The notes under the pieces were generated by a model. It had not been told where the DNA came from, made no database searches, and was given only the letters and a program-made list of their open reading frames with translations. The position numbers were made by a program, and so were the translations under genes. From positions 261,746 to 325,745 of the forward strand of contig CAJINV010000028.1 in NCBI GenBank assembly GCA_905178155.1: a stretch of DNA of 64,000 nt, read 5' to 3'. The stretch comes from Amoebophrya sp. A120 (Eukaryota > Protista > Dinoflagellata). Of this stretch, positions 8,801 through 61,300 are shown piece after piece; within the stretch, counting starts at the first letter, position 1; every line of letters starts with the position of its first letter.

Positions 8801-10305
8801 TCGCCTGCTTTTTACTACTCTTCTTCGCCGATTGCTTCCTCACCATTCCGCTCGCTCCATCCGCGGCAGAAGGGATACTAGAGCCTCTTGGTTCTGCTAC
8901 CGAACCGGTCCGCTTTTTCGCCACGGTGGAGCTAGCGTCAGACTTTGCAGTTTTTGTTCCGGCAGCAGATGCCTCTGCCTCAAGGACTCTCTTGACGGAG
9001 GATTTCGATTTCGATTTCGCTTGCTTCATGTCAGCATCCTGTTTCTGGCGTTTCTGTTCGGCGATAGACATCTGCTTCTCACTGCGCTCTTGTTCCGCCA
9101 CGGCTTTGCTCGCGGCTTTCGAGTTGCTGTAGGTCATTTTTCGTTTCATCACTGTGCTTGAAGAGGTCGCTTTTAGTTTACCAGCGGGCTGCGCGTCTTC
9201 TGTGTCGACGTCGAGCGTGTAGTAGTTTTCGTTGGCCTTGACAGCTGACGTCTTGTTCGCGGCAAAAGTACTAGCCTCGTCCTCGACTTTTGCCTTGTTG
9301 GAGGCTGTCGTCCTCCGCTTTTTTGCGACCGGGTTAGCAAGAGCATCGGAGTTTGCTTTTTCCTGCTTCGGATTGCAGCTCTTTTCGGTTCTAACAGACG
9401 CGTCCAGGATGATCTTCTTCGTGTTGGTAGATTTCGGTTTGGATTTCGCGCTGGATTTTACGTCAGATGAATCCTGCTTCTGTTCTTGCGCGACAGACAT
9501 CACCCGCCCACTGCGAGCTTGTTCAAGAACTCCAGCCTTGTTCGTATCCTGAGTAAAAACGTACCCACCCCATAGTTGTAATGCAAATCTGCATGCTGAA
9601 AATGTTTCTCATGCGGAGCCCCATGAGAAGCATTTCATAGTCGTGTTTTGCAATTTGTCATGCTCCAATCAGCATGGTATGCTAGATCTGTGATGCTCCT
9701 GAGCTAGCTCAAACAGCACTACAATACGAGTCCAAATTTGTCATGCAAAACAGCCAAAACTTGTGGATTTGTGTAGCCGATTCCCCATCTTGACTATGGT
9801 GTGGGTACGTTTTTACTCAGGATAGTTCGCTTTCGCACTGCTGGTCGTTCTCCGTTTCGTCACTTCGCTATCACCTGCAAAAATGTCTGGGTCTGGAAGA
9901 ATGAAAGTTTCAGTTTGTCATGCTTGTCTGGCATGACTCGAGAATCTGTGCTGCATAGGCACGACAAGGCCCTCTTGGTTGTCATGCCAAAACGCAGTTT
10001 GCCATGCGGAATATATAAGACATGGCAGCCAACACATTTGTCATGCGTAGCTGCGTACTGCAATGCGTTTTTCATTCACTTTTAGCATTACAAGTTTCCA
10101 GACCCAGACATTTTTGCATTTGATATTCGCCCGAGGAAGGCAAATCTTCTTTCACCGTGCTCTTGCGCTTCAAGTTCAACTTGGAAGAAGCTTCCAGCGC
10201 GGCCGGCTTCGCGCCACTAACCTCGTACTTGTCCTTGGCGATTCCCTTGCTGGAGGTGCCTGACTCCTTCCCAGTGGCCTGGTAGTATTTGAAGAATTTG
10301 GACAT
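5885..10305 (-). CDS. Lys/Ser/Ala-rich low-complexity protein with a Cys-containing C-terminal region (paralog 1, MSKFFKYYQ...), ~1001 aa, 5 element introns
   Basis: Removing the elements at 9869, 9545, 8122, 6992 and 6548 (+5 nt each) gives 3006 nt in frame. The 8122 junction is the least certain; the gene could stop there. Confidence 0.65.
6548..6844. mobile_element. TIR intronic element, family A, decayed
   Basis: TATCCAGTGCAAACGCGTC...GACGCGTTTGCATTTCGTA; flanks CTCGG/GGCGG; frame restored. Confidence 0.75.
6992..7272. mobile_element. TIR intronic element, family A, decayed
   Basis: TATCCACTGCAAACGTGTCTGGG...GGCACATTTGCAATGCGTA; flanks AGGCA/AGACT; frame restored. Confidence 0.75.
8122..8396. 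mobile_element. TIR intronic element, family A, TSD lost
   Basis: TATGGACTGCAAATGTGTCTCAGTCTGGA...TCCAGACCCAGACACCAATTTCCAGTTGATA. Confidence 0.75.
9545..9824. mobile_element. TIR intronic element, family B
   Basis: TATCCTGAGTAAAAACGTACCCAC...GTGGGTACGTTTTTACTCAGGATA; TSD GTTCG. Confidence 0.95.
9869..10125. mobile_element. TIR intronic element, family A
   Basis: TATCACCTGCAAAAATGTCTGGGTCTGGAA...TTCCAGACCCAGACATTTTTGCATTTGATA; TSD TTCGC. Confidence 0.95.
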
Positions 10306-10481
10306 GGAACATATTTTTTTAGTAGAACAAGTAAAAATATAACCCTGATGTCTGTCGTGTGGTAAAAGCTACAACTACATAACGCCGCGGGCGGAAGTTC
10401 AGCTTTCGCTTCAGAAAGAAAAGCAAAAGAATCAATCTGGTATAATTCCCATGAGCTGCTCGTGCTCGTAACAAAATTGTT

Positions 10482-13400
10482 TTATACTTTGGCTTCCTTT
10501 CCTTTCTTGCCCTTCGTAACCGTTGGTGTTGGTTTTTCATTTTTCATTTGATTCTCCTCCAAATCCAGCTCCAGCAGGGTTTTTTTCGCCGCTTTTTTCC
10601 CGATCGCGTCTTCAGAGGAGGTGGTCTTGGTGTCGTTTCTCTTCTTCCCCAGGGCCGCGGAGGTACAACTAGAGCTCTTAGTTCTACTAATACCGCCGCC
10701 AGTACTCTTTCTAGAAGCGGCAGCGGTTTGTTTCACTGCCACCTCTGTTTTCGACGATTGCTTTGTCGCTTTTCCGCCCGCAATACCTCCTGCAAGAGGC
10801 GTGCTAGAGCCTCTTGCGCCAGACTTTGCTTCCCGTTCCGGTTTGGCCTCTTCGGCAGCAAGAAACGCCTCGAGGACTTTTTCCTTGTTGGTAGTAGATT
10901 TCGATTTTTTGGATCGCGATTGCATCAACATGTCAGCGCCCTTTTTTAGTTCCATCTGGTCTCCCCCGATAGACCTCTGCTCAAGGTGATCGTGCTATCC
11001 TGAGAAAAAACGTACCCACACCAGAGTCAGGATGGGGAATCTGCTAGACAAATCAGCCAGCTTTGGTTGTTTGGCATGACAAGTTTGTCCGCGTAGTGTA
11101 GTGCTGTTTGAGCTAGTTTAGCAGCATTACAGATCTAGTATCTCGTGCTGATTGGAGCATGACAACTATGGTGTGGGTACGTTTTTACTCAGGATACGTG
11201 CTCCAGCTTGCTCATCTTCGAGTTGTTGGCGGTCATGCTTCGTGGTCGTTTTATCACGTTGCCCGAGGATATCCTGAGTAAAAACGTACCCACACCAGAG
11301 TCAGGATGAGGATTTTGCAACACAAACCTAGGAGTTTTGTGAGTCACGCATGACAAGCTGCACTACGCAGTGTAGTGCAGGTTAGCAAGTGCAGCCGCAT
11401 CACAGATTCGTCTGCTCATCCTGTTCACAGCATCACAAATTCCAAAACACGATGGGAAATGGCTCTCATGGGGATGCGCATTACAAGTCTTCCTATCTTT
11501 GCAAATCTGCATTACAACTCTGGGGTGGGGACGTTTTTACTCAGGATAGAGGAGACCGGTGATTCTTCATTCCCCGTGGTCGTGGTCGTGACCATATTAA
11601 GAGGAAAAATCCCCCCTCCCCACATCGCAAAGGTATGCTTCCGAAAATTTGTGTTGCTGATTTGAGACCACAAATCGCCTCTGTCTTGCAAGGAGGCAAC
11701 TCCACAAGCTCCGCAGCATTGCGCAGGCGGTTTGTGATGCTGACGGGCCTCCAGTACGGACGTTCCTCATGCTAGACGCCTAGGCCAAAACCTCTCTACT
11801 TAGGCTTAGTATGGGCCTGCATTTCTCTCCAGCAAGACAGATCTGATTTGTGTACGCAAATCCTGCATCAGAAACTTCGTTTCGATATGGGGAGGGGAGA
11901 TTTTTCTTTTTGATAGACCATCACGGTGCCCGAGGTGGTCATTCTCCTTGGTCGCTTTTGTTCACCAACGAGCACGGTGGCTTGTTCAAACGGGTGCTTT
12001 TCGTTGGCCTCGAAAGTGGAAACTGACCTCTTCGAATTCTTCGTTCCGCTGGCCGCGGCACTGGTGGACTATCAAATGTAAAAATGTCTGGGTCTGGAAG
12101 AGTCCATGTTTGTCATGCGTGTCTGGCACGACTCGCAAATCTGTCATGCACGTTACCCAAGAGCGCCACTTTTCCGTCATGCAGAAACGCAGTTTGTCAT
12201 GCAGAATACAATAGGCAACACCTAGAAGCTCAGAAACTTCTCATGCTGAGCCAGCACTTGTGGCTTCCTCATGATATGCCACCCAGCATCACAAGTTTCC
12301 AGACCCAGACATTTTTACATTTGGTATTCTCCGTGGTCGTTTTATCACGTTGCCTGAGGAGCCCGGGTTTTGTTCACCTCCACCGAGCACGGTGGCTTGT
12401 TCAAGCGGGTGCTTTTCGTTGGCCTCGAAAGTGGAAACTGACTTCTTCGAATTCTTCATTCCGCTGGCCGCGGCACTGGTGGACTATCAAATGGAAAAAT
12501 GTCTGGGTCTGGAAGATGTGTCCATGTTTGTCATGCGTGTCTGGCACGACTCGCAAATCTGTCATGCACGTTCTTACCCAAGAGCGCCACTTTTCCGTCA
12601 TGCAGAAACGCAGTTTGTCATGCAGGATACAATAGGCAACACCTAGAAGCTCAGAAGCTTCTCATGCTGAGCCAGCACTTGTGGCATCCTCATGATATGC
12701 CACGACCCAGCATCACAAGTTTCCAGACCCAGACATTTTTACATTTGGTATTCTCCGTGGCCGTTTTATCACGTTGCCCGAGGAGCCCGAGTTTTGTTCA
12801 CCTCCAACAACTACGGTGGCTTCAAGCGGGTGCTTTTCGTTGGCCTCGAAAGTGGAAACTGACCTCTTCGAATTCTTCTTTCCGCTGGCCGCGGCGCTGG
12901 TGGACGAAGACTGTATCACCGGCTCTATTCTAGCAACAGACGCCTCCGCCTCGCGGCCCTTTTTGCTGGTGGATTTCGATTTTGATTTCGCTCGCCTCAA
13001 GTCAGTATCCTGCTGCTGTTCTTCATCCGCGAAGATGGGGAAGAGCTGCTCATTGCCGTTCTGTTCCAGCACCACGGCCGTGCTCGCTTTCGAGCTGTAT
13101 CAACTGGAAAATGTCTGGGTCTGGAAGAATCCAACTTGTTATGCTGATTTTGGATTCTAAAAAAATCTGTATTGCATGAGCAGCAAAGAGAGTCCAAGTT
13201 TTGCTACACGGAAAGAGCATTTGTCATGCGGCATAGGCATCAGGAAGCCCTCACAAAATCTGTGATGCTAGGGCATGCATCACAGACATCAGGAGTCATG
13301 CAAAATGTGCATGACAAACCTGGCAATCTTCCAGACCCAGACATTTTTACTTTTGATAAGCTGTTGTAGTTGTTCATTTTCCGTTTCATCGCTTTGCCGG

Positions 13401-13722: not shown

Positions 13723-13834
13723 TAATCATTGGAACATCAAGTAAAAACTGCGCAGTGTGTACTGTGGCAAAAGCCGAGGAAAGTTGAAGCTCATCTTTCG
13801 GTTTACATTTACAAAAAGAAATAAGAGCGTCATA

Positions 13835-14556
13835 TTACGTGAAGATCGTGCTGCTCGTAACGAATTTGCACTTACCTTCTTTCCCTTCTCTACTTTGCCG
13901 CTCGGATTTGAGGGTTTTTGATTCTCCAAACCCTCCTGGCGCTGTGTTTTTTTTCTGAATTGCAAAAATGTCTGGGTCTGGAAGATTCTCAGATTTGTCA
14001 TGCATGTTCTGCATGGCCCAGGATGTCTGTGATGCGCGACCGCGCATCACAGGTTTTGACCTGGCTTCCTGATGCCTACTCCGCATGACAAACGCCCTCC
14101 CCGCGTAGCACAAACTAGACTCCTCTTGCTGGTCATCCAATACAGATTTTTGTTTTTCTAGAGTCCAAAGTTAGCATCACAAGTTCCAATCTCGCAGACC
14201 CAGACATTTTTACAGTTGATATTTTTCTGTTCGCTTTTATCTTCCTCCTGTGTCACTTTTAATATTGCGGAACTTTTTCTGCCTTGTTTCGAGGACTTGG
14301 CTGCTGCACCCGTTCCGCTGGCCGCGGCACTGGTGCACGAAGACTGTATCACTGGCTTGGAAGTTGTGTTTTTGTTTCCATTGTTGTCGCTCACTCCAGT
14401 CGTGTTTCTGCGCTTGGGCTCGGGAGAAACTTCGGTGTCGGCAAGCTCCGCGGCAAATAGAGCCTCCTGCCCGTGTTCCGCTTTTGCCTTACTGGAGCTG
14501 GCGGACTCCTTGCTGGTGGCGGCGGTGGACTAGTAGTATTTTAATTCAGACGTCAT
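13835..14556 (-). pseudogene. Third Lys/Ser-rich paralog (MTSELKYY*), with an in-frame TAG at codon 9; 3' end approximate
   Basis: TAC TAC TAG where paralogs 1 and 2 read YYQ (CAG); shares the VIQSS.TSAAASG block with paralog 2. Confidence 0.5.
13954..14221. mobile_element. TIR intronic element, family A
   Basis: TCTGAATTGCAAAAATGTCTGGG...CCCAGACATTTTTACAGTTGATA; TSD TTTTT; empty paralogous site at ~15880. Confidence 0.9.
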
Positions 14557-19134: not shown

Positions 19135-20521
19135 TTATTTTCCTGCTCTAGAGTGAAGAAAGCCAAAGTGCGAAAATCGGAAGATTTGCAGTTTGCATAT
19201 ATAGTTCTCACACAGTCCGAATGCGATTCCGAAAAGAGCGTGTTTATGGCTACTTACATATTTCTCAAACCCGTTTGTCTCCTGTGGGGGACGCAGTCGC
19301 GCCGGAAGCTGCTGTCCCTGTTGCTTGTTTTTCGCGTCCGGTCGGTCCTTCCTTTTGTCGTTATCCTTGCGAACTTCGTATTTGGCTCCGCGAAGATGTT
19401 GGCCCGATTTGCTCGCCTTCCACTTGTTTCCGCTACTGGCCTTGTTACCTGTAGCCCACCCACGACGCCCGGCTCGTAAGTGATGAATCCGCTGGTTGTC
19501 GTACTCGAACCTGCATTGTTGGTACAGCTTGTCCCGAAGCTTTCTGGAGCGCTTTGCAGAAGAAAGCTTCTGCTTCTTCTTCTTGCTCTCGACTTGCTCC
19601 TCGTCTTCCCACGGCCAGATTTCGCGGAAGATTGCGGCTACGGCGGCTTCCGCGACATCATCGGTCACTGTCTCGTGGTCCCGAAACTTCTCCAGAGCCC
19701 CTGATACCGCGAGCAAAAGTTTCTCCGCCTCTAGCGAGCCCGCGGATCTCTTCGCATTGCTGGAACAACACTTCGTTCTCGTCGGCCCGGACTCGCGCAG
19801 ATCTTTGAGGCACCACGCCTGCACAACCGCGGGTCGGAAGAAGGGCGTACTCTTGCCCTGTTGAGGCGACAGCGCGTCGCAAATGGCGTCGTATTACAAT
19901 GAAAAATGCCCCCTCCCCATATCAAAACGGAAATCTGTGATGCAGAGTTGCGGTCACAAATCAGCTTTGTGACGCTAGAAGGGAACAGGTGCGGATTGTA
20001 GTGCTGGCTGGCGCAGGAACGCCTTGCGTCTTCAGCATGACAGGAAGCAACTGGAAAGGGGAAATAGCATAACAAATTGGCTCCAAACGAGGGAGCAACT
20101 GCGCCACTTGGCCTTCTAGCAATACACAACGATTTGTGTACTCAAATACAGAAACACAAATTTCGTTTTTGATATGGGGACGGGGGATTTTTCCTTTTGA
20201 TACGTCGATCAACGTGCTCAGATCGTCCATAACTTGCTGCTTCTGGTTCTTCTCCTGTCGCCTTTGCATGCGATGAAAATCATTTTGAAACGAGTCCCAC
20301 TGCGATCCTCCATTTGCTGTTCTCCCCTGCTCATCACGTGGACCGGCTGGTTGTGCCTGCTCTTCATGCTCGTCGATCACATCCCGCATGTCCGCGTCTT
20401 GCGAACCCAACGAACAAGAATAGCTACGTGAGCTAGAAGTGCTACGCCGCTCTCTACTTTCCTCGCGGCGTCGTGGCGGTACTACCGGGCTCTCCTTTCT
20501 ATCCATTGCGCGTCGGGGCAT
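19135..20521 (-). CDS. Hypothetical basic protein with one element intron
   Basis: Removing 19892-20202 +5 nt joins ...DDLSTLID to AICDALSPQQG...VQAWCLK in frame. Confidence 0.7.
19892..20202. mobile_element. TIR intronic element, family C
   Basis: Family C TIRs; TSD CGTCG. Confidence 0.95.
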
Positions 20522-30403: not shown

Positions 30404-30647
30404 TATTCACTGCAACTATGTCTGGGTCTGGAAGAGCGCAGTTCTGTAATGCTTGTCTCGCATGAGTCTTGAAAATTTAATACGTGAGCATCTTGTCTGT
30501 CATGCAACCACGCAGTTTGTCATGCGGAGAACGAAACACAAAGGAGCTCAGATACTTCTCAAGCATGGCAGTGTACTGCAGTCGCGCGCCCACCATTCAC
30601 ACACTAGCATCACAACTTTCCAGATCAAAACATATTTGCAATGCATG
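30404..30647. mobile_element. TIR intronic element, family A
   Basis: Diverged TIRs; TSD GTGCA. Confidence 0.85.
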
Positions 30648-36200: not shown

Positions 36201-37414
36201 ACCGTTCCGAACGACCCCGAGTTTGCCTGTTGTTGTATTCATTGGAGTACGAAATATAGACATTTGCGCGACAACTTCTACTTCAACGAGAGCGATGCAT
36301 ATCAAACAGCGCAGCAAAGAGCAAGCAACCGGCGCTCACTCCTCCCAAACGCTGCAAAAACACCCAGCAGAAATCTAGCCCTTCGGGCGTTTCCATAATT
36401 CTATTGAACATATCAAAAATCAAATAGAAGCTTAAGAAGGTACCGCAGAGAGTGGCTGAAAATCCACACACAGCAGCTTCCGTGGCGGTAAATAAACCGG
36501 CCCCGTGATGTGCGGTAAATTCGCCTCAATTCCGCACAAAACGTGCTCGCTGGTCGCCGAATTGCCCTTCAGAGTGGGGATAAGTGGCGCTTGCCGTTCG
36601 AATATCCCAGGGGAAAAGCGCTACAGTGACATCACACTACACTGAAATAAAATGCATGAGTTCCTTCGGTGGACAAGTCAGATCTTTTTCGAGCTATCTG
36701 AAGAAATCGTATAAGTATAAAACTTAATCGTATAAATCCTCATTGCAGGCAAGTAAAACACCAATCCTGTAGCTTTGCGTCAGAAGAGTTTTCGTATTAG
36801 GCAAGACAGAATTCTATGGAATCTAAGCGAGCTCGTCACTGTAGCACTTTTTTTCTGTTCGATATCGAAGCAGTCGGTGTCGTGTAGCAGGCTGTGGCGC
36901 CGATTCCTCGGCAGAGCAGCGTACTGGAACGGCAAACTGGTGAACGTATCGACCGATGAGTGCGCACGGAGCCTCGTATTCGCCGTGGTGGAAGTAGTGG
37001 TGCCGGACCCTGTGGCCGAAGTATACCCAGCGTCATCCTCGTTGGGGGACTCGTACGGCTTTTGTCGCTTCTTCGCGTTGGCGTTTGCGCGAGCAGCCAT
37101 GTCGTGCGACAGGAAGTGGGGTGTAGGTGTTTCGGGCCAGAAAAATAAAGATAATTACAGCACAGTTTATAGCCCCCTTTTTCCTGGGTTGGGAGAGCCT
37201 GGGAGAGGAAAATCAGCAACGCCAACACGTCACAAAAAAAAAACTCGCTGGATTATCTAATCCCCCGCGTATGGTGTTGATTATTATACTTTAATAGGGA
37301 GAGCCATAGAACCAAAAAAAATTTCGCGCGCGCGCTGCGCGCGCGCATTCACTCACCCCATACGCAGCCAATGGCGTTGCATCGATTCGAAGGCAAACGA
37401 GCACCGCGCGCCCG

Positions 37415-45894: not shown

Positions 45895-47174
45895 GAAGCG
45901 CCGAGGAAGCTGGTGGAGGACACCGCTCTTGCTAGTTTTGCTGATCTTCTTTTCAACATGTTCGTGTGGATCTGCTGGAGTCTTACTTTGCTCTTTTATG
46001 AACAGTGGACATCGTCTACTTCAAACTCTCAACATCTTGATTGCAGCCACCACTTTTTTATTATGCCCTTGTTGTGGCCATACTGCGACGCGCCCTTCGC
46101 AATACGATCACAAGCACACGCACCAAAAAAGAAAAAGCATTTAAGTATAGTATGCTGCACCAGACCGATGAAGAAAAATTGGATCAAAAAGCTTATTTTC
46201 GGTCACTCCCACATGACATCGCTTGGTAACAAGGTATGAGCCCAGTGTATCTGCTTTTCACAAGATCCTCTGTTTCGTCAGGAACCAAAGCTTGAGCGGT
46301 CAGATCGATTCGGATAACAACTGATCCTTCGTTATTCACCTTCACGGAGACACAGTCTTGCCATGCTCACACAATTATCATCACAACCTTTCAGCGGTAC
46401 CTTACTAGGCAAGAGGGATTTCAATTTGCATGTTTGGCTGCTGATCTAACTCCGGAACATCTTTTTTTTCCTGAATGGCTAGCACAGCAGTCATCCCCCT
46501 TCGTGGGCTTTCAATTCGCATAGGCACAGTGTTCGATGGACGCGAGACAAGAACAATGAGTTTCGTATTCCCTCCTGCTCCGATGGGCATGGCACCTACG
46601 TAATGTCTATCAAGTACATTCTTTGTTGTTTGAATCCTGTGTTGTGTTGTACTCGAGCAACTGCACACTGAGATAAAAAACGATTTCCGTAATTATATTG
46701 TATCCAAACAAACAGGAAACGCCTCCCGTTTGCGCAGCGCGATCAAGTCGCGTAGAATGACATTCATGTTGATAAAAGCCGGACAGTAGTTGTAGGTGTC
46801 CGTTGTAGATGCCCGTGGAGAACAATCAATCTGTGTCTATTACAACCTTCTCCGCTAAACTTCCAAAACCTCCACTCCCGCTGGGAAGATAGCGGCGAAA
46901 ATACATCAAAGCGTCGTTGTTGTGCTAAAAGTATTCATTGGCTGTTGCTCATGCTGAGTTGTATTATATCTAGCATTTTGCGTCGAAAGAAACTAGGTGA
47001 GATGTTGTGATACATGATACACTTATCGACAAAAATCAAAAATAGTTCACCGAGCGAGTTGCTGTTCCTCTGTTTCGTTAATAAGCTCGAAGCTCGTCTT
47101 AGCTCTTGCGCGCAACTTGTGCAGTCAAAGTAAGTAGCAGACCTAGCTAGTCCTTGTTGAAGAGTCGAACCAAC

Positions 47175-50110
47175 CTACTTGCTGCTGCAGCCGGAGGGAT
47201 TGGCACTGGTGCCACTGCAGCCCTTAGACGAATATCCTGAGTAAAAACGTCCGCGCACCAGAATCAAGATGGCAAATCTGCTAGACAAATGAGCAAGAGC
47301 CAGCTTTGGTTGTTTCGCATGACAAGTTTGTCCTCGTAGTGTAATCCTGTTTAGGTATTTCAGAAGCATCACAGATCTAGCATATCATGCTGATTGTAGC
47401 ATCACAAGTTCCAAAATACCATTAGAAAATGGTTCTCATGTGGTTTCGCGTGAGAAACCTTTTTGGAGTGCAGATTTGCATAACAGCTCTGGGGTGGGGA
47501 CGTTTTTACACAGGATAGCGAAGAAATCGTGGTCATTTCCGCTAGCAGTTTCTCCACCTTCGCGTCGCTCAGGCGGCAGTTCGCGCTACTATCAAATGCA
47601 AATATGCCTGGGTCTGGATGAGTACAAGGTTTGTCATGCATATTTTCCATGAGGCATGATGTCTGTGATGCACGCCTAGCATCACAGATTCTGGGAGAGC
47701 TTTCTGATGCTCCTGCCGCATGAGAAATTCCCTCTTTGCGAAGCAACAGCTGGACCTCTTTTCCTGCTCATGCAGTACAGATTTTATGTAGAATCCAAAG
47801 GCAGCACTAAAAGTTGGATCTTTCCAGACCCAGACATGTTTGCATTTGATAGTTACGATGTGGCTGCAATTCCCGCGCAAACTTGTCATCCACGAATCCG
47901 CGGCACCTGACCACCCGGTGCGGAATGCCCATGCGGTAGACGGGCTCTTGCTCTACCACCTTCATGACCCAGGAAAAGAACCTGACATGCGTTATTTTCA
48001 AAGGGAATCTGAATCTATCACGAACATCACTGCCAGAGTATGTTTTCTTCAGACTCCGAAAATTTTCGGCGCGCGGCCGAGACCACACCGAAACTGCAGA
48101 GCGGGCGCGTTACTTCACGAGGAAGCACCCGCTGAGAGTAGAAATAGAAGAACAGGCGCGAGCGTGTGAGCTTGCTGGAAATAATTTGTAGTGCCAGTAC
48201 ATGAAAAGCCTGGGGCGCGTAATCAAAAAAAAAGATCGATGGGCTCGCTTCTACCTGTGTGTCCCCCCCTCGGATTTTCTGGCTTTGAGCAGTATGCAAC
48301 TGCCTACCGGTTGGGCGAACTCCCGCCAGAATGCTTGCTATCAATTGCGAAATGTCTGGGTCTGGAAAATTGCAAAATTTGTCATGCATCTCGCGGACCA
48401 GAAGGAACCATATCCACACTCATGGTCTGCAATGCACGCAGAAGCATCACAGATTTTTTGAGACCTTCCTCATGCCTATGTATTCCGCATGAGAAATTCG
48501 GTTTCTGCCTAGCGAGCATTGGGTGCTCAATTATTGGCGTTCATGAAACACAGATCTTTTTGAGATCCAAATTTCGCATGAGAAGCTTCATTCTTTCAGA
48601 CCCAGACATAACTGCGCTTGATACTTGGAGCCACTTCGCGAATGCGCCCAGGCTGCGGGACGTTTTCCACGATTTCTCGCGGAGGTTATCAAATGCAAAA
48701 ATGTCTGGGTCTGGGAGGATGGAACTTGTGATGCGTCCTGTGGGTCACACAAAAATCTGTGTTGCGCGATCACCAAAAAATGTCCCTTTAGGACCAACGT
48801 GAGCGGGAGTTTAACATGCAGGAGAGGCATGATAGAGACTCCGCAGAATCTGTCACGCTAGGTCCTGCATTCCAGACCTCATGGAGCATCGGCATGGAAA
48901 ATATGCATGACAAGTCTGCACTCCTCCAGACCCAGACACTTTTGCATTTGATAGAGGTCGGGCAACTTCAGATCTTTCACGGATTGCTTCCAAGAAGCTC
49001 TCATGGCGGCGGTGGAGTTCTCTAAAAACGCGACAGCTAACTCACGGCGCGCTATGGCGTTCTCAAATGTTACACTCTCAACTGTTACATGATTTGTCAT
49101 GCAAAACTCTCGTCAGAATCTACACCATCAAGCTGCTTCGCAAGACAAATTTCCGAAGGGCTAAACAACAGGTAAATCTGTGCTGCCAAACCTGTGTTGC
49201 AAGAGGCGCAATCTTCCGCCTTTCTCTCTTGCTATTTTTGCATCACTAATTCATGTAACAATTGAGAATGTAACGCTTGAGAAGTCCATACCCGCGATCA
49301 CGACCTTCGGCAATCCTTCGGGGGTAAAGAAGCGCAAATCTTTCTTCAGATAGTTGAGCAGTTCCTCCATGAACGGGAGCGGGTGGGTCAGTGCGAGGAC
49401 GATGGTTTCGCCGAGCATGAAGGTACTAATAAGTCTACTCTGGTTCCAATACCACATCGTCACCGCGTTTTTGTTATCGAAGGCAAATATCTCTGGGTCG
49501 AGAAAGGACTCGTCATGCTGCGAAGGGAGCCACAGAAAATAAATCAGCACTGTGTGAGTTGCAATAAAACAAATGAGCTGCCCACTGAATAAATATTCTT
49601 GCTCCGCAAAGAACAACGAACTAGAGTTCTCTCATGCGTGATCAACCGGTGTCGCACAGTTCTAGCCCCTGACATGTTTGCGCTTGATACCTGTGGAAAG
49701 TCTTGGGCACGTTAGGTTCCGCAACAACTTCGTCTATCCTTACGAAAAACGTCTCCACCCCGGCACCCCAGTCTTAACATTGATTCAAACTTGCCTGCTC
49801 AGCAAGTCTCTCGTCCTCCTGCGGCTTCGCATTGGAGGCATTTTCTATTTGTGTGTGGGCGGGATCTGAAATGCGGTAATCAGACTAAGACGGTGGATTT
49901 AGGATGCATCTTCCGCACAACTAGCTAGGCATGACTACAATGTAGAGCGCAAGAGCCTCTCATGCGTGGTCAGCCCCGAAAGCCCTAGCCTTGTATTGCA
50001 AATCAAGTCCAATCTCAATAACCATGGGGAGCGAGGTGGGGAGGATTTTGCTGAGGATATCTTCGTCCTCCTCCATGTCGTCCTGTTGATCCGCTGCTAC
50101 CAACAACTGG
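47175..50110 (-). CDS. Hypothetical multi-exon protein with six element introns; further introns unresolved
   Basis: Junctions at 49735, 49475 and 48687 are in frame (..MEEDEDEVVAEPNVPKTFHKNAVTMWYWNQ..; ..LPDLREKSWK..). Both ends approximate. Confidence 0.5.
47233..47517. mobile_element. TIR intronic element, family B
   Basis: Family B TIRs; TSD ACGAA/GCGAA. Confidence 0.92.
47590..47851. mobile_element. TIR intronic element, family A
   Basis: Family A TIRs; TSD GCTAC/GTTAC. Confidence 0.92.
48339..48623. mobile_element. TIR intronic element, family A
   Basis: Family A TIRs; TSD CTTGC/CTTGG. Confidence 0.9.
48687..48953. mobile_element. TIR intronic element, family A
   Basis: Family A TIRs; TSD GAGGT. 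Confidence 0.95.
49475..49689. mobile_element. TIR intronic element, family A, decayed
   Basis: TATCGAAGGCAAATAT...ATGTTTGCGCTTGATA; flanks TTTGT/CCTGT. Confidence 0.78.
49735..50059. mobile_element. TIR intronic element, family B-like, decayed
   Basis: TATCCTTACGAAAAACGTCTCCACC...GGTGGGGAGGATTTTGCTGAGGATA; TSD TCGTC/TCTTC. Confidence 0.82.
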
Positions 50111-50278
50111 AGTTTTTAGTCGATAGAGACATGATGTAATTTTAAACCTTTTCTTATTCTTGCGTGTCCGATTTATTTCTGTCTTGTGCAGCATTTCTCT
50201 TTTACACGAATTTCCAATTTCAAAATCAAGCAGGTAGAGTAAGTTCTTCCACGACAGTGATGACAGGAATACTGAAAC

Positions 50279-51395
50279 TTAAAACAACTCTACTATGCTA
50301 TACCTGCTGCTGCTGGCCGCTATGTTCTTGGGGTTCTTGCTGCACATCCTCTACTTTCTTCCCCGCTCCGTGATCTTCGTCGACTTTCGCACGTTTGCAT
50401 TTCGGTATCAAATGCAAATATGTCGGGGTCTGGAAGATTGCCAGGCTCGTCATGCATGTTTTGTAGGATCCATGATGCCTACGCTACGAATATGCATGCT
50501 CTAGCATCACAGATTTTTGGCGGACCTGCTACAGCTAATGCCTACTACGCATGAGAAATGCCCTCTCCGCGTAACACAAACTGGAATGCTGTTGCTGGTC
50601 ATGCAATACAAATTTTGTTGAAGTCCAAAGACAGCATTACAAGTTGCAACCCTCCAGCACCACACATATTTGCAATCCATATTCGGCACCGGCAGGCTAC
50701 TGCAACAGGGGTCGTCCTCCTTCATCTTCTTGTGCTCGTCTTGGTCGGTGGAATTCGCTTGACACGAAATCTGATTTTTTTGCAAAAAAAGATGAAGTCC
50801 ACTTCTCCCCGACCTCACTTGCCGCTCGCGCTTCGTGCAGGAGGATGGGCTACAAACTTACTATACCCTCTTTAAAACAGCATGCTTAAGCAAAAGTTTT
50901 TCTGTGTAGGCGCAAAGAAGATAACATGCAGAAACAAAAGTGAAAAGGAGAAGCAACAGTAAAAAATACCTGCACATAATCTTCCGCCGGCTTTGCGGCA
51001 CAATTCTGGTTGTCCGCTGCGTCCACTTTGGGGACTGCTTCTTCCACCGCGGGTTGGCCAGTTTGGGGGCTGGTCCGAAATCCCAAGCCAGTCATGAAGG
51101 TCTGAACAATCCGCTCCATTGTTTCGGTCGTGGTCGTGGAATACTAGAGGCCTCCAGAGTAATGACGATCCAGGATGTAAGCACGTTGTGATTTCGATTT
51201 GTTTTTGTCGTCAAGGATATTTTTATATTCGCGATTTTTCAAAAATATTGTCGCCAGTTGCGATCGCAACGGTGTCGTCGGGGATACAATAAGAAATAAA
51301 CCTTCAGTCGTCGATGTCGCCGGGTACTTCTTGTAGTCGCTTTTTGTTATTGCTAGACAGCTTGTCTTTGTAGTTTTATTTTTCTTCTCTACCAA
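50279..51395 (-). CDS. Hypothetical multi-exon protein; 5' structure uncertain
   Basis: Element junction in frame (..SLPVPKCKRAKVDEDHG..) through to a TAA at 50279. Confidence 0.4.
50406..50681. mobile_element. TIR intronic element, family A
   Basis: Family A TIRs; TSD TTCGG. Confidence 0.92.
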
Positions 51396-52398
51396 TCTAA
51401 AAACCGTATTCCCTTGTTCCTACGGTTGTTTTTCATGAGCAACTGCGTTGAAGTTTTGACGCACTTTTCTTCGCACACGTTTCTTCTGCGATCCATGAGC
51501 TGCGGCACAGATCCCGGGCTACTTAAGCGGGGCCGCGATGGACGATGACGATCAACATGCGAAATAAAACAGAGCTGATCTTCATATATCAAAACATGAT
51601 CCTCCGTAGCTGCAACTGAGTCATGCTCATGCTTTGCCAGCATCGTATCATCTACTTCTTGCAGCCAAAACCAGGGCACGAAAAACCTTGGTTCGTGAAA
51701 GTACCGTTGCGGTCACGGTTTCCAGAGTGAAAACAGGATCGACTGCGCACGAAAGATCATTTTCGAGGCCAACAAGTGCTCCTTCAACACTGTGATCAAA
51801 GACTTTACCAGCAGCAGAAAGTGAGTTTTAGGTTACTCACTACCAGGACGAGAACACACGAGCACAGCTACGGTCAAAAATCTCGCTCGTCGCACACACC
51901 CATACTTTTCCGGTCGGATTGAAAAAGATCCGACCTCGGTGTACCGAATTTTCTTTGCGGCTTGGACAAGCGTTTGCGTTTCGTTAACCGCACGGGGCGC
52001 AATAACCATATCACTCATGTGATGCGCAATAAGAACTGCCGCTACTCCTACTTTGATGAAGAAAGGAAATTCTCCTCTGATCCGATGCAGCCAAAAATCT
52101 GCTGCTGTAATTAAGTGATACACCCAGATGACTAAAATGACAATGAGCCAAGTGCTGCATGACTTCGCCCGCGTTGCAACAGCTAAGAATGTGCTGCTCG
52201 AGCTGCAACTACTGTAGTGAAAACGTATAAAAAAGAACAGTATCAATCACGTGAATTTGAATGAACCAGATAAAACCTTTTTCCTATATTCTCGAGAGGC
52301 AATATTCGCTCGCACTTGAAATTAAATAAAGACATGTTCCCTTTTTATCTCTAAAAAAGTACACAGAGCGCCTTCACTTAATTTTTCCACTTTCATAT

Positions 52399-55300
52399 TC
52401 ATTCCGCCTCGGCAGGAGCGCCATGCAGTTCGCGATATCGGTTGGAGTACTGCTGCCGGAGCAGCCCCCGCCACGTTTGCATGGTGGCCGCCCGCTTTTC
52501 CGCGTTTGCGTTCCGCATGACCGCCCGCTTTTCCGTGAGCAACTGCCGGTCTGACACCAGCTTGCACAATTCCAGGATGGTCCGGAACACGATGATGCCC
52601 GGCGATTTCTCAGCGTCGTACATGGAGCTGGTCTGCAGCCACTGGAGTTTTTTGACCCGGGTGGAGAAGTCCAGGGCACCCGCGGACCCCGTGGATCCGA
52701 GGTTCCCGTCGTCATTGAAGACCAGGTCCGCCAGGTACCTCTATGGATTGCAAAAGTGTCTGGGTCTGGAAAGTTGTAATGCTGGGTGGCGTATCATGAG
52801 GATTGCACAAGTGCTGGCTCAGCATGACAAGTTTCTGAGCTTATAGGTGTTGCTTATTCTGCATGACAAACTGCAGCTCTGCATGACCGAAAAATGGAGC
52901 TCTTGGGTAACGCGCGTGACAGATTTAAGAGTCATGCCAGACTAGCATGACAAATCTCGCAATCTCCCCGACCCAGACATTTTTGCAATTGATAACCTCC
53001 GGCTCGGCACGAACATGGCCAGCGACAGGGAGTTATCCTGTGCAAAAGTATCGCACTCGTACTAATTGCCTTTATGCATTACAAATCTCCATCCCAAGGT
53101 AAAACAGCATGACAAAATCCATTTGTCATGCTGAGCTAATTTGTATTGCAATTTATACTACTACGATGCTTTTGCAGTTCATAGGAGTACAGCTCGTGAA
53201 AGGCGTAGGTTTCGAACTCGTGCGGCACGTACACGATGGCTGTAAAGCGCCGCTTGATTTCTGCGAAACTCATGCCCTTGCCCGTCACCAGGTGTGCCTG
53301 TTTGCCGCACGAAGGTGTGCTGCGCAGCAGGAGCACGATCTGGAGCCCCAACCGGAGGGCATTGTTCCCCCGCGCCCAAATGCCGACGTCCTCCAGGTCA
53401 GCGGAAGCGGAAGATTTCTTGAGGTTGTTTGGTATGTCCGCAGCAATGGAAACGGCATACTGCTCTCCGTTGGCGTCCCGTGTCAGTACGGTGACGCGGT
53501 CACGAGGGCCGCTGGTTGTGCTACTTTCCGGCGTGCTATTCATTTTACTGGAAGCCTCGTCGCGGTCACCAGGCTCTCCCGGAGCGTTCTCCCCTGGAGG
53601 GAGTCGTAGTCGTTCTTGTGAGGATATAATTTCACCATCGGGTCGTGCTGGAGCCGACGATTGTTCACTAGTCTCCTGCCCACGCAGTGCTTCCTCCGCT
53701 GGTCGGAAAAGAAGATCGCCCTCGGCATTCCGTACTGCGATGCTGGATCGGCTTGGCGATGTACTAGTTGACGCAGACGCTGCGTTTTTGATACTATTTC
53801 CGCCTTCATCCTCTTCCATCTCTGCAAACCTTGTGTCGTCCAAGTGTAGCATCAGTGGCTGCAGTATCCAAGAAAAAAACTGTGTAAGTGTAAATTTGTG
53901 TTGCAGAAAATGCCAAACTGTTACACTTGTCGTGCTGGACATGCATCAGAGGCAATTTTCGTGCGTGTTTTCACGTACTAGCCACGCATGACAAGTTTTC
54001 TGTGTTATGCAGAGCAAACTTGTGATGCTATTCCTCAAAGAAACTTACACTTACACAGTTTTTTGCCTGGATATGCAGCACCGGGACAAGGGCCGGAGAT
54101 GAGGTAGCCGCGTCTTTCAGTTGCTCGGTCTCCTGCAAAATCCGCGACAAAATCAGGTTCGAAGTGGAGACGATGGCCGTACCCGCGGCTCCGCTGTGCA
54201 CCAAGGTTCGGCCTAAGCTCCAAAAGCGTCGCCATATCCCGAGTAAAAACGTGTCCATCCGATAGTCAAGATGGGAAATCTGCTAGACAAATCAACAAGC
54301 CCTGGTTGTTGCGCATGACAAATTTGGGCGCGCAGTGTAGTCGTGTTTACCTAGTGCAGCGACATCACAGATCTTGCACATCATGCTGATTCGGGCATCA
54401 CAAATCTCAAAACACAACTAGAGAGTGCTTGTCATGGGTCTCCGCACGAGAAGCGCTTTGAGGATGAATGCAGATTTGCATTACAACTCATCTGCAATCG
54501 AGGTGACGTTTTTACTCTGGATACGCCAGGCCGCAGATTCGCCGGCTGCGGCAGACGCGTCCGTGGCGGAGTTGAGAAAAACCGCCTTCGTGCACCGGCC
54601 TTCCACGAAGCACGGGGATACAGTGGCTTCTCTTTCTGGTATTATAGTAGCTGACTCAGATGCAGCTCCTGGGTATACGTCGTTTGGGGCGAGAAAGTTT
54701 GGCGAAATTCCAAACCAATTCGACTGGATTAGCAAGACTGTGTTAGTTCTACCTCCACTGGTGCCGTGCTGCTGGCTCTGCTTGTTTTTAACCGCCGTCT
54801 GTTGCTGGAAATGTTGCAGCAGGTATTTGTTCCAGACCTTGTTCAACTCCTGTTGTAATAACGCACACAAAAAGAACGGCGTGCTGCAGGAGGTAACCAC
54901 GAGCAGCTCAATAAAGGTCGTGCTGGTGCTGTTGGCGTCCTTAATCATAGAAGTATCCCTTGCGCGAGACATGACTTCGTCTTCCCACCAGTTTTCGATG
55001 ATTCTGCTTACGTGTGTTTCCACCACGTCCAACTGTGACAATCCGTTATGGAAGTGTCAGGATTGAAATCGACGAAGTTGAAATAACTTGTAATGCATAA
55101 TATCCATACAAATTGGACCCGCATTTTCTAGTCGGTGCATGACAAATTTTGTCCATGCCGGAAGCCAGTTTGTCATGCTGTTCAGGGCAAAGGGGCTCCG
55201 CTCTGTGATGCTAATCAGCAGCCCAAGTCCCGACCCTTACCAGCACTACAATCTGCCTCCCTTGCGTCCTCTGCAATAGAGGCAATCTTTGCGTTGCATT

Positions 55301-58300
55301 TTCTGCATGACAACCTATTTGAATTTTGACGATTTCAATCCTGACACTCCCATAACCGTGGTTTCCGCCGTAGTGCGGATCGTTTACGCTTTCGTCCTAT
55401 TAAGAGGAAAAATACCCCCTCCCCATATCGAAAAGGTATGTTTCCGGAAATTTGTGTTGCTGATTTGAGACCTCAAATCACGTCTGTCTTGCAAGAAGGC
55501 AACTCCACAAGCTCCGTAGCATTGTGCAGGCGGTTTGTGATGCTGATGGGCCTACAGTGCGGACGTTTCTCATGCTAGACGCCTAGGCCAGAACCTCTCT
55601 ACTTAGGCTTAGTACGGGGCTGCATTCCTCTCCAGCAAGACAGATCTTATTTGTGTACGCAAATCCTGCATCAGAAACTTCGTTTTGATATGGGGAGGGG
55701 GGATTTTTCCTTTTGATACGTCCACCTCGACAAACAAGGCCCCCAAGTCGTCCAGTTCGTTGCCGCAAAACCGGGGGTTGGGGTTCACGCAGCGACAGAC
55801 CTCCGGCGCGTTATGACAGTGCACAACTACTCCCCCTCCCTCTCATTTGTCATGCATACTCGCCGACTGCACCACATCAAAAACCTTTGCACCGTTGCCG
55901 CAAGCAGCTTCGGACGCAGACGATCTAGTCATGCAAAATCCTAACTCCAGTCCCTGCCTTGCCCTTGTGGCACTGTTTGCACGACAAATTCTGGAGGCCC
56001 AGACAGTACTAGACTAGGCACACAAATTTCCCCTGCATAGGCTCCACTATTGCTGTTCATGCAATGCAAATGAGGGGGAGGGGAGTTGTGAATTGTCATA
56101 GGCATGGCGGCACTGGTAAAACCCACCCCAGAACTGCTCCTCGTCGCGGCCCTCGACAAAGACCTGCTCTTCCACTAATGCCCGTCGCACCGCCAAATGT
56201 GCCTCCTGGGCGAAGGGCGCGTGCGTGCCGAAGCTGGCAAGCAGGGTCCTTCGATTCTTCGCAGTATTGATCGACCGGTGGCGACCACTGCTTTCTTCAC
56301 CGTAATTCGCCGTTCCACGACCACGGACCTCAGAATTCTTATTATCCACAGCATATCCTTGTGCCGCGGAAGTAGATGGTCCAGCAGAAGTGCGAAATAA
56401 GCTAGAAGTTTCTCCCCTGGCTAGCGCCGCATTGTACTCCGTAGCGGTCATGGGCCAAACGATGCCCGGGACTAGCGTGAGGCGGAAGAAAGAACCAGTG
56501 CGCGACGCTGGGACCATTTCGGAAATCGAGGAAGCTGCAGCAGTGCTTAAAGACAATAAGTAATCTGGCTCTTTATCTTCGGCACTTCTCGAGCCACCTG
56601 CACCTTCCGGGAGTGGCCCAGCACTTCTGCATAATCTCTTCGTTTCACGCGGCGGCAAAGCGTAGTTGGTACTACTATCCGCGACACGCAGACTACTCCC
56701 TTTTTCCCCGTGGACTAGCGCGCCACGGCTCACTGAGGTAGCGTTTTTCCGCAGCATCGCCGCTCCCCTCTCCTCAACGTCTGCTGTGGTCCCCGTCAAA
56801 TCTTCACCCGCTGCATTCGCGGACAACATCCCAGCATCTTCGCCCTCTTGCCGCTTTTCCTCAGGGGGGACGGGCTGCAGTACTTGGTACGATTTGTCGA
56901 AAAACAGCGCGCCGGCCCGCGTAGCTGCGCGGACTACGTGAGTGCTTTTTTCTGCTATAGCACTGGTCGCCGCACGACTACCGTCGCAGGTGATTGAGGC
57001 AGAAACGGTGCCGTCTCCAACATCTACTCCGGTAGACGTTTCACTGGTTGTACTGGTGGCATCACCAGCTGCGGTTCCGTCGCCGGCACCCCCACCGCTG
57101 CTCAGCCACACTAGGTCGAAGTGTGCCTGCATATGAACTGCAAAAGTATCGTACTCGTACAAATGCATGACAAATTGTCTCAGCATGAGAAACAAAATTT
57201 GTAATGCGGATTTACGTTGAGAAAAAAATTTGTAATGCATGATTGCAATACGAGTACGATACTTTTGCACAGGATACTGCAAGTACCGCTGCAAAACCGT
57301 GAGGTCCGCCGAGTCCGCAGGGTGGTCGCGGTCTCGGTGCATCGCCCAGAGGCTGTAGAACGTGCCCTATTGTAAGGAAAAATCCTCCCTCCCCATATCG
57401 AAAAGGCAAGCCGCAGAAAATTTGCAATGCTGATTTGTGACCGCAAATCGCTTCTGTCTTGCAAGAAGGCAAGTCCGCAGGCTCCGCCGCATTACGCCGG
57501 CGGCTTGTGATGCTGTTGGTCCTACAGCGTAGACTTTTGCCATGCTGGGGGCCTACGTCAAAACCTCGCTGCCCCGGGTTGGCGTATGCCTGCGGTTCTC
57601 TACTGCAAGACAAATCTGATTTGTGTACGCAAATCCAGCATCACAAACTTCCTTTTCGGTATGGGGAGGGGGGATTTTTACTCACGATATGCCCTGCAGC
57701 GTGTTCTCATGGAACAGCTGCTTCGGCACGAACCCCTTCTCCCGCCACCACTCAAAAAGGTATTTACCGTCCATTTGAAGCTGCTGCAGGTTCGGACTTT
57801 GATGCGGGGCTCCCGTGTAGTCGGATATCAACTGTACAAATGTCTGGGTCTGGCAGAGTGCCAGACTTGTCATGCAGGTTTTCCATGACCCATAAGGTCT
57901 GGTATGTAGGACATAGCATGACAGATTCTGTGAGAATTCTATCATGCCTATCCTGCATGAGAAACTGCCTCTCGATCAGGTCAAAAGTTGACAGCTTTTG
58001 GTAATCATGCAACACAGATTTCTACATGATTCAGATTTAGCATGGGAAGTTCCTTTGTTCCAGACCCAGACATTTTTGCATTTGATATCGGATTCCGCTT
58101 CGCGAACATCAAACACCGCGGCACCGTAGAGGCGCTCCACGCGCAGCCTGTGTTCGTGTTGCAGCAAGTGCGCAAAACTGGAGTGAATCAGGTACGCATT
58201 GGGAAAGTGGTCGTCCGCGTGCAGGCGGAACAGCACGTACCCGTATCCTGTGCAAAAGTATCGTTGTACTCGTATTGCAGACATGCATTTACCAATCTTT

Positions 58301-61300
58301 TTTTTGAGGTCAATCTCCATTACAAATTTTATTTCTCATGCTGAGGAAATTTGTAATGCATTTATACGAGTACGATACTTTTTCAATTCATAACCCGTAG
58401 GGCGTCGCGATGCGCAGAATCTCCCCGAGAGAGCAGCCCCGGATCATGTTCTTGAGCAAGGAGGAATACTGCGAGCCCACATCCGTGTACACCGTGGGGA
58501 GCCAGGAACCAAACCCGATATCCGGAGGCAGAAAATAGGCTATGATTTCCATGGCGATCAGCAGAGTTCTCGTGCGCATCTCCGTGTGCAGCTTGTGCAG
58601 AATCTTTGACAGATACTCACAATCGCGGTTGTCGAGATCAATCTTCAACAGCGTGATGGGTGCGGCACTATGGAGCTGCGCCGGCGTAGTTCCTTTGATA
58701 TTCACAGAAAACGCGTCGTGGTTCTTCTGCGTCGTGGCCGCGGTGGTCGTCCTCAACGCGGTCCTGCGGAAGAGCGGGTGCTCGTTCAGAAAGCTGTCCA
58801 CCGTCTCCGGACTCACGTAGTCCGTCACGAGATGAAGGAGCTTACGTTCTTGCGACGAAGATGACGTCTTTGCGGTCTTCGCATCTCGTGCCGGTCCTGC
58901 TTGCTGGTGTACAAGAACATCTGTGGTTCCGCTAGATGAAGAAGTTGTAGCTTCTTTAGTACCTCCTGTTGCTTCAGATGACACAAAGGTCCGGCTTTTG
59001 AAGATCTGATCGCGCAACACCGACACGCGATCGGGGTCGCCTTCGAACAAAACGCCCCCGGCGCCAGCGAATTCCACCATGGTGTGTGCTTATCGTACGA
59101 AAAAAGTGTTTCACTGTAAGGATTTTGCAGGTTTTGCATCACAAGTTTGTTCTACATGACAGAGAAAATTTGCCATGCAAGGTTCCTGAGGGAAAACACA
59201 GCTAAAAATCCCCTGTCTTGCATGTGTAGCAAGACAAACACTTGTGACTGTGAGATGCAATTTCTGCATTACAAGTTTCCAGTGAAACAGTTTTTTCTGG
59301 CGATAGTGCTGGATCCACGTCCCAGTCGGATCGGTCGTCCTCTTCCATCACTCCATATCATGAGTAAAACATCTCCACACCAGAGTCAAGATGCGGATTT
59401 TGCAACACAAACCTAGGAGTTTTAGGAGTCACGCATGACATAAACAGACTGTGCTACTACGCATGACAAGTTTCAGTCCGTAAGGTAGTGCAAGTTAGCA
59501 AGGAAAGCCGCATCACAAATCGACCTTCTCATCCTGTTTACAACATTACAAGTTCCCAAACACGATTGAAAATGCCTGTCATGGGGTTGCGCATCACAAA
59601 TGTTCCTGTCATGGCAAATCTGCATGACAACTCTGGGGTGGGGACGTTGTTACTTAGGATACTCCAGCCCCCAGATTTATCACGAACCGGTCCGCCGCGC
59701 GGGTCGCACCAGCGTCCTCCGCGGCCCTGACAATGTCGAACAAGTTTTGCTGCTTCTGTAGAAGTTGTAATCCGCCTCGCTGCAAGGTTGATGCTGCGCC
59801 CGCGCCCTGTTTCCTCGTCGTGTGCGGTTCTTGCGCTGGTGCCTCGTTTTCAACAGTAGACGGAGTAGTTGTTGACCAGTCAATCAGCTCTCGATACACG
59901 TCGGAGGGAGGAGCGGCAGGAGGAGCACCCCGAGCTACAGGTGGCTCCTGCTCAGGACCGCTTATCATTCCTGTCGCATTTTGATTTTCTTCTTCCACCT
60001 CCGCGCCTGCTGTGCCATTCTTCGGCAGACCGAGAAAGTCCTCGACGATCGTGGCCGCGTCGGCCTCGGTGAGGAACTGAAAGTGCTTTCTGCTGGGCAA
60101 CACGGCGTATCGTACGGCTTCCAGAATGTTCCACAGCAGCTCCTTGCGGTGCGGAAACCGCTCGCTTTCGAACCGGTCGTGCTCTAGCACCGAGGGGAGC
60201 AGGAACCCCGCGCAGCTCGGCGGGCTGACGGCGTGCGAGGCCCAGAACTCCTCCCACGGGTTGGGCAACCCCGACTGGCGCTCGTACTCATCCAGCGCCT
60301 CGTTTTCGCCTTCCTGCTCCGCGGCTTCTAGCGGGTCCTCGCTTCTCCGCTCCACCTATGAATTGCAAAAGTAGTATCGTACTCGTATCAATGCATTACA
60401 AATTTCCTCAGCATGAGGGATAAAATTCGTATATGCTGATTTACCTTAAGAGAAAGCTTTGTCGTGATGCATGATTGCAATACGAGTAAGTACGATACTT
60501 CTGCACAGGATACCACCTCCCGTAGCCGGTGGGGGACCTGCACCAGTGCCTTCTGGACGTGCCGGTTCTGCTCCCCGTGCTCGAAGAGGCGCGCAAACGC
60601 CCGGATGGAGGCCGTTTCCGGCGCGCGGGGGCCATGGTGGCGAAAGAAGGCCGCCAGCTCGTCATACAGTGCGGTGCACACGTGGTGCAGGTGCGTCAGC
60701 ACCTGCTTCTTCTCGTTGCGGACCGCGTGCTCCTCCGTGAGCACCGTGGCTCCGTCCAACCGGTCCAGGATCGCTTCGTTGCGGAGAATGATTTCTATGT
60801 TGGTCTCGCCAACCTCGTTCAAAACTTCGTCAAAGGACAGGGAGCTGAAATAGGTCATGTTGCTCTTTCGCTTCTCGTATGAAATGCAAAAGTATCGCAG
60901 TCGTATAAATGCATTACAAATTTCTTCAGCATGAAAAATGAAACTTGTAATGCTGAGTTTCCTTGAGAACAAGATTTGTAATGCATGACTACAATACGAG
61001 TACGATACTTTTGCACAGGATATCTCGTCCATCAGGTCGTGGTGTTCGTCGACCAGGTCGTCCAAGTGCGTTAGCTGCACGTTCCAGTGCATTTTCAGAC
61101 ACACGTACTGCCCGAGCCAGCAGGTAAGCTCGAACACCAGCTGTGCGATCTTCTCCAGAAATTGCCTCGCCCGCGGGTACACCTGGATCTGATGATGAAG
61201 ACTGGAAAACTCGAAAAACTCGTTCGAACAAACCATATCGTCCCCCTCCGGATCCAGTATCTCGCTGGCGTTCTCTTCCCCGCGCAAGTCAATTTGGGCG

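Follow-up and report, generated by a model that had tools for sequence, protein, structure and literature searches.

The dinoflagellate Amoebophrya sp. A120 carries introners that Farhat et al. (2021; PMC7789003) describe as non-canonical introns of about 240 nt on average, present in 29,850 copies and making up 17% of the assembly. Their ends consist of TAT, seven less-conserved nucleotides and then three As, and they lie between direct repeats of 3 to 5 nt, with the border given as unknown; the authors draw a hairpin with variable splice sites and did not detect U1 small nuclear RNA (snRNA). A second study (PNAS 2025; PMC12130899) places most of 58 A120 families among DNA elements of 145 to 350 bp with terminal inverted repeats (TIRs), superfamily unknown, and labels one 808-bp family, fam38, as Ginger, with "5-bp TSD, TA/TA Termini" (TSD, target-site duplication) and open reading frame (ORF) homology of the Copia/Gypsy type. 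Neither the movement of A120 introners nor their splicing, which has no GT-AG borders and no detected U1 snRNA, is explained in this literature. Here we analyze the repeated elements of a 64,000-nt stretch of the A120 genome on contig CAJINV010000028.1 (the window), in which a preliminary description had noted families of elements that share a terminal TAT-N7-AAA code, N7 being seven variable nucleotides.

The window elements share with the introners of Farhat et al. the organism, the end motif, the direct repeats, the division into families and the status of non-canonical introns, and two window ORFs are 100% identical to proteins named Amoebophrya sp. A120. Since Farhat et al. already describe the end motif, it is a rediscovery of the published introners and by itself adds nothing to published work; our refinements are modest. 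The window elements have a uniform 5-bp duplication and are compatible with one splice register, in contrast to the 3 to 5 nt repeats of Farhat et al. and to the automated TSD calls of 2 to 11 bp in PMC12130899. We consider it highly probable that the elements are the published A120 introners, likely spread by a single putative DDE transposase and spliced out together with one copy of the repeat.

We curated 54 elements of 145 to 344 bp between 6548 and 61615 (13,981 nt in total, 22% of the window), including elements at 6548, 6992, 8122 and 61344 that lie beyond the range noted earlier. TAT is present at 100 of the 108 ends, AAA (positions 11-13) at 90 and both at 83, and TAT-N7-AAA occurs 122 times on the two strands, compared with 34.7 ± 5.7 expected from 30 order-2 Markov simulations. 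The ends quoted in the preliminary description sit where it placed them (TAT CCTGAGT AAA at 9545, TAT CACAAGA AAA at 23897, TAT CCAAGAA AAA at 53865, TAT CGTACGA AAA at 59091 and TAT CCTGTGC AAA at 61022). Families H (55047) and J (55812) do retain TAT, as it had said, and read TCA and CAC at positions 11-13; the element at 49053 represents a third AAA-less family. It was also right that N7 is mismatched between the two arms while TAT and AAA persist: N7 is unequal in 49 of 54 elements, and mean arm mismatch is 31% in N7, 5% at positions 1-3, 8% at 11-13 and 23% at 14-30. A 5-bp TSD is exact in 35 elements (mean identity, 0.87), whereas exact duplications of 3, 4 or 6 to 9 bp occur in 0 to 1 of the 54 and of 2 bp in 9. 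The elements are thus short, non-coding, multi-copy sequences with TIRs and a fixed-length TSD, the features of miniature inverted-repeat transposable elements (MITEs).

The same families recur, at identities up to 97.6%, in 618 kb of JACKZZ01 contigs that were retrieved with one family-A end pattern (the related loci), and window and related loci together hold 10 families of 5 to 100 members each. A detector that ignores positions 1-13 and requires an exact 5-bp duplication and an arm match at 14-35 returned 271 candidates from these loci, with TAT at both ends in 209. The masked window had no unique sequence in common with 141 loci. Summed contig depth in one run (X6) was 44 to 64 in element-free bins and 8,000 to 190,000 in element bins, values that do not give a copy number.

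Removal of the elements from RNA is scarless, taking the element plus 5 nt. We placed contigs from four runs of one sample, presumed to be RNA (RNA-like contigs), on positions 42400-62300; of the 15 joints listed among 29, 12 remove an element and exactly 5 nt; a minus-strand gene accounts for the remaining three, all ordinary GT-AG introns. A raw-read run (X9) yielded 7 reads only. In the kinase gene, the length of an RNA-like contig equals that expected, by hand arithmetic, with all six elements removed. When each element and 5 nt were excised in silico, 53 of 54 elements fell within minus-strand ORFs of at least 150 amino acids (aa) and the longest frame reached 2,044 codons, versus 33 to 41 elements and about 700 codons with wrong excision lengths. 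The annotated A120 protein P0043 (1,428 aa) matches the spliced frame with 0 mismatches across 13 excisions, and at 3 of 3 sites in the RPB1 gene of a related locus (L047) excision at +5 gave the highest score in comparison with a homologue, the alignments listed being gapless. The excision factor left vague in the preliminary description therefore resolves, from the RNA-like contigs and the annotated protein, into RNA splicing. Elements that lack AAA are removed as well (49053 in an RNA-like contig, 55047 and 55812 in P0043), so AAA is dispensable for splicing. The spliced frame at 59968-62404 (minus strand) extends 616 codons upstream of the P0043 start through three more elements, and the P0043 annotation may be truncated or split. 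By a codon model, 52 of 54 elements lie in minus-strand genes, which fits the unidirectional gene clusters reported for Amoebophrya.

The families had been called unrelated, a view that did not hold up, because nearly all share an internal repeat. TGT[ACG]ATGC is found in 10 of 10 family consensuses, including two AAA-less ones, and in 50 of 54 elements, with 140 matches within elements (13,981 nt) versus 2 in the other 50,019 nt of the window. The first copy mostly lies 33 to 45 nt inside the end and points inward, the wider context is AAA-YT-TGT-S-ATGC, and the commonest spacing is 31 to 33 nt. The motif is 92% conserved, versus 78% for the remaining interior, and as a common code it outperforms AAA. 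Consensuses C and C-like, and likewise E and F, have interior stretches in common (E ~1e-10). Cut-and-paste transposases usually bind to subterminal motifs that are repeated. Neither the internal motif nor the difference in decay between TAT and AAA described below was seen in the literature searched, in which figures S19-S25 of PMC7789003 were represented by their legends, and searches for a later mechanism or for the internal motif found none.

We compared the decay of the end motif with that of the interior in 421 distinct copies found by interior similarity alone, with seed-matching ends excluded (699 ends). Consensus match was 97.1% for TAT, 96.1% for positions 11-13, 77.9% for N7 and 81% for the interior. 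The 181 copies that had diverged most gave 96.4%, 94.5%, 74.0% and 74.2%, respectively. TAT and AAA in old copies, at about 95 to 96% versus 74%, do not decay at the rate of the interior; decay at that rate would have spoken against a shared terminal code. Consensus match mixes constraint before and after insertion, and we therefore used the TSD pair as a post-insertion clock, in 279 of the 421 copies (excluding those with a TSD match below 3/5 or with an end that matched the seed). Between the two TSD copies, 70 of 1,395 positions (5.0%) are mismatched, a clock that is itself partly under coding constraint. The two TAT arms mismatch less often than this (23/837, 2.7%; p = 0.009), positions 11-13 at about the same rate (44/835, 5.3%; p = 0.84), N7 at 24.7% (390/1,577) and positions 14-30 at 15.1%. 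Since TAT but not AAA decays more slowly than the TSD, TAT is likely a splicing signal, retained after insertion, and AAA a feature of transposition time that would be matched at insertion and then drift like the TSD. Most N7 mismatches, on this comparison, would already have been present at insertion.

The duplicated target shows no base preference, and in transcript orientation it has no GT or AG bias (220 elements); elements occur in both orientations relative to the gene (116 vs 85); the splice signal must therefore lie in the element and be symmetric. Joints at elements with a decayed TSD, a class that makes up about 24% of the copies analyzed, are informative about its position. All seven such joints allow four upstream bases to be kept (k = 4), and the element at 49475-49689 allows k = 4 only, which on the transcript places the cuts one nucleotide upstream of TAT and four nucleotides downstream of ATA. 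The joints lend weak support to a register in which the intron would be N + TAT...ATA + NNNN. Of 68 TSD mismatches, 26 are synonymous and two would create stops at k = 0, which fits one TSD copy being reliably intronic. Because the canonical introns of the gene at 46517-51444 begin GTAT, GTAT and GTAG, N-UAU resembles a donor without its G. TAT has changed to TAC six times at intron 5' ends and never at 3' ends among the 220 elements (two of the six are duplicates), at window positions 6844, 7272, 12326, 12750 and 31290 and in related loci; this may reflect tolerance for a GUAY-like donor. Two sources were discarded as register evidence: P0043 is uninformative, its two decayed TSDs being synonymous, and published dinucleotide counts (fam2, 6,681 of 9,716 introns starting NT and 6,598 ending AN; table S4) were dropped because the two excesses, taken jointly, can be accounted for by where an aligner puts the junction within the repeat.

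Other introns of this kind differ in their borders. Euglenid nonconventional introns (PMC11282704) likewise have TIRs, TSDs and non-canonical junctions, are likely MITE-derived and have ends offset from the paired region, but they carry CAG/CTG at +4..6/-8..-6 and a pyrimidine/purine border, whereas TAT/ATA in the window elements would stand at +2..4/-7..-5 with no border preference; the CAG/CTG pairing is absent from them, their ends being TAT/ATA. The introners of Aureococcus and Micromonas (PMC9860276, PMC7789003) are also non-autonomous DNA transposons turned introns, with one TSD copy removed, but they carry or co-opt canonical GT/AG, in contrast to the unbiased window targets. Nor do the elements match canonical U2 introns, GT...AG, as joint 49470/49691 gives GT...AA.

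We propose that a single DDE transposase would spread all families, and that it would require the TAT at the tip and bind the internal repeats, (AAA)YTTGTSATGC, often 31 to 33 nt apart; in most families it would also read the A-run at 11-13, with N7 as a free spacer. The elements lie in coding exons, flanked by 5-bp direct repeats, and are removed from the RNA along with one repeat copy. The splicing machinery would read the same TAT...ATA, identical in both orientations, and its cuts would likely fall one nucleotide ahead of TAT and four past ATA. The resulting intron would begin N-U-A-U, in the manner of a GUAU donor, and would require neither G nor AG in the target. Under this scheme TAT would be read at both the DNA step and the RNA step, and AAA at one of them only.

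The preliminary description had suggested a common transposase lineage or excision factor, and a common mobilizing factor is supported by the uniform 5-bp TSD and the shared internal motif, although it is inferred. We give about an even chance to the candidate transposase being an integrase-like DDE enzyme near IS3EU/GingerRoot (PMC10045372). That group has TA..TA termini, matched by the window elements, and a TSD usually of 6 bp, matched by 0 of 54; it offers the best superfamily lead, and because the TSD length fails we do not claim membership. More tentatively, all major A120 families, with or without AAA, may be non-autonomous offspring of one IS3EU/GingerRoot-like transposase (5-bp TSD, TTGTSATGC repeats three helical turns apart) and U1-less splicing may read N-UAU...AUA-NNNN in one register, a joint reading that we think somewhat more apt to fail than to hold.

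Several results weigh against this proposal. Pfam searches of 39 window ORFs and of the 130 longest of 201 related-locus ORFs (at least 200 aa) returned no transposase or integrase, and Farhat et al. report no transposase in A120 and argue against mobilization by one. Old and young copies do not differ significantly in any class of positions. The probability that random cuts share a register is P = 0.196, and the seven joints are confined to a single sample and to two genes, both on the minus strand, with one joint read from the end of a piece; the source runs, moreover, are presumed, not recorded, to be RNA. Folding of a single element showed a stability no greater than that of shuffled versions of it (z 0.78), and G-U and A-C mismatches between arms are equally frequent (263 vs 260), so that there is no sign of selection for a long RNA stem.

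That last result also counts against the account that we consider unlikely but the strongest competitor, in which TAT and AAA are features of the transposase or master copy only, while an inverted-repeat hairpin guides splicing and the cut may fall anywhere in the 5-bp duplication. Such a hairpin is drawn, with variable splice sites, in PMC7789003, the terminal arms do pair in our one fold, the register test is not significant, and most duplications are intact, which would make slack harmless. It does not lead us to expect TAT mismatches below the TSD clock, or TSD mismatches distributed as if one copy were reliably intronic. We find it quite improbable that the elements are self-propagating introns that spread through RNA, by reverse splicing or otherwise, and use no DNA transposase, all their shared motifs being splicing-factor sites. 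The failure to find a transposase, the location of 53 of 54 elements in coding frames and the undetected U1 snRNA would suit this route, but it does not explain insertion in both orientations to the transcript, ends and internal motifs that are mirror-symmetric, or a constant 5-bp duplication of random sequence. Duplications of this sort, constant in length and random in sequence, are the hallmark of staggered cleavage of DNA. What PMC12130899 reports of the 808-bp fam38, namely its 5-bp TSD, its TA/TA ends and its homology to Copia/Gypsy ORFs, argues against the RNA route too. There is equally little probability, in our judgment, that TAT ends arose by convergence in several unrelated transposon lineages, only elements with such ends being spliced. 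In favor of convergence, the main families lack long alignable stretches in their interiors, and PMC12130899 assigns A120 introners to several classes of transposable element; opposed to it are the identical TSD length, an internal motif that all 10 families share at an equal distance from the end, and the interior stretches shared within two pairs of consensuses.

No cognate autonomous element was found in the 64 kb of the window and the 618 kb of related loci. Long candidates in the loci were sought as TAT-ended pairs with an exact TSD, and those examined were rejected, further such pairs occurring in L007, L054 and L075: L045:3331-9527 consists of two internal pieces of family D, L043:6001-7031 is three adjoining elements, and the long pairs in L047, L030, L031 and L018 contain inserted non-coding sequence. 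Three family-end patterns gave 0 matches to viral contigs, and an Rfam search gave 0 matches. The pair in L047 (6001-6972) is a family A intron in the RPB1 gene with a 710-nt insert that has 19-nt direct repeat flanks and an A-rich tail and resembles a retro-insertion. Elements at L030:571-1051, L031:3862-4492 and L018:6314-6770 have normal ends and TSDs around 200 to 300 nt of unique interior (captured or replaced sequence).

Coordinates of the elements and their host genes are collected below. The two near-identical elements within 12070-12750 share their flanks and their decayed TSD and represent a tandem duplication of exon plus intron that followed insertion. The window also contains tandem arrays at 25900-27400 (~120-bp unit), 37376-37938 (39 bp) and 63236-64000 (181 bp), the first two with inverted sub-repeats, and a PC4/Sub1-type coactivator with two PC4 domains at 306-866 (minus strand). 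A homologue search for the gene at 8400-9503 among 50% representatives gave 0 matches. One related locus (L013:591-2090, plus strand) holds a C-5 cytosine DNA methylase ORF.

Table 1. Elements and host genes in the window (TSD fractions are matching positions; "removed + 5 nt" refers to RNA-like contigs)
Feature	Positions	Strand	Remarks
Old A-type element	6548..6844		TSD 3/5, one end TAC; inside 1022-aa minus-strand ORF after excision
Old A-type element	6992..7272		TSD 3/5, one end TAC
Old A-type element	8122..8396		TSD 0/5
Family B element	9545..9824		TSD GTTCG
Family A element (253-nt group)	9869..10125		TSD TTCGC
Short family B element	10996..11196		TSD CGTGC
Family B element	11270..11548		TSD GAGGA
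Family C element	11595..11915		TSD GACCA
Family A element	12070..12326		TSD 2/5, one end TAC
Family A element	12485..12750		Tandem duplicate of 12070, flanks identical
Family A element (262-nt group)	13098..13358		TSD AGCTG
Family A element	13954..14221		TSD TTTTT, one end TCT
C-like element	19892..20202		TSD CGTCG; RNA-like contig joins 19886 to 20203 (316 = 311 + 5)
Family A element, kinase gene	22431..22690		RNA-like contig, length arithmetic
Family A element	22760..23014		One end TTT
Family A element	23066..23316		
Family A element	23392..23643		
Family F element	23897..24107		TSD 4/5
Family A element	24183..24444		
A-type element	30404..30647		Sole element outside a 150-aa ORF after excision
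Family A element	31009..31290		TSD 3/5
Family A element	31351..31628		
Family F element	31673..31885		
Family C element	32316..32659		
Old A-type element	32730..32984		TSD 3/5
Old F-type element	36603..36864		TSD TCGAA
Old A-type element	40052..40366		TSD 4/5
E-type element	40401..40668		TSD 2/5
Young family A element	44696..44947		97.6% identical to copy in L085
Family B element	45012..45290		
Family B element	47233..47517		Removed + 5 nt
Family A element	47590..47851		Removed + 5 nt
A-type element	48339..48623		Removed + 5 nt
Family A element	48687..48953		Removed + 5 nt
AAA-less family, TCA at 11-13	49053..49290		Removed + 5 nt
Old A-type element, decayed TSD	49475..49689		Joint 49470/49691 without slack, fixes cut
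Old B-type element	49735..50059		Removed + 5 nt
Family A element	50406..50681		Removed + 5 nt
Family A element	52742..52994		Removed + 5 nt; absent from P0043
Family D element	53034..53183		Removed + 5 nt
Family G element	53865..54073		Removed + 5 nt
Family B element	54235..54523		
Family H, AAA-less (TCA)	55047..55354		Absent from P0043; RNA-like piece ends at 55042
Family C element	55398..55718		Removed + 5 nt
Family J, AAA-less (CAC)	55812..56100		Absent from P0043
Family D element	57132..57276		
Family C element	57368..57689		
Family A element	57826..58087		
Family D element	58244..58392		
Family E element	59091..59305		
Family B element	59356..59661		
Family D element	60357..60512		
Family D element	60878..61022		
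Family A element	61344..61615		TSD 4/5
Host frame, 2,044 codons	52402..62404	-	16 elements + 5 nt each removed; last 1,428 residues = P0043
Host transcript	46517..51444	-	8 element introns + 3 canonical GT-AG introns
Protein-kinase gene, 476 codons	22194..25142	-	6 element introns

The constant 5-bp duplication and the shared internal repeat together provide a probe for the autonomous element, and decayed duplications let the true splice register be read from existing RNA sequencing data. Apparent diversity of splice sites can arise because the placement of a junction within the 5-bp repeat is free, and if the register is fixed, much of that diversity in the annotation would be corrected. If the joint reading of one transposase and one register is true, any insertion, into any sequence and in either orientation, would be a finished intron from birth.

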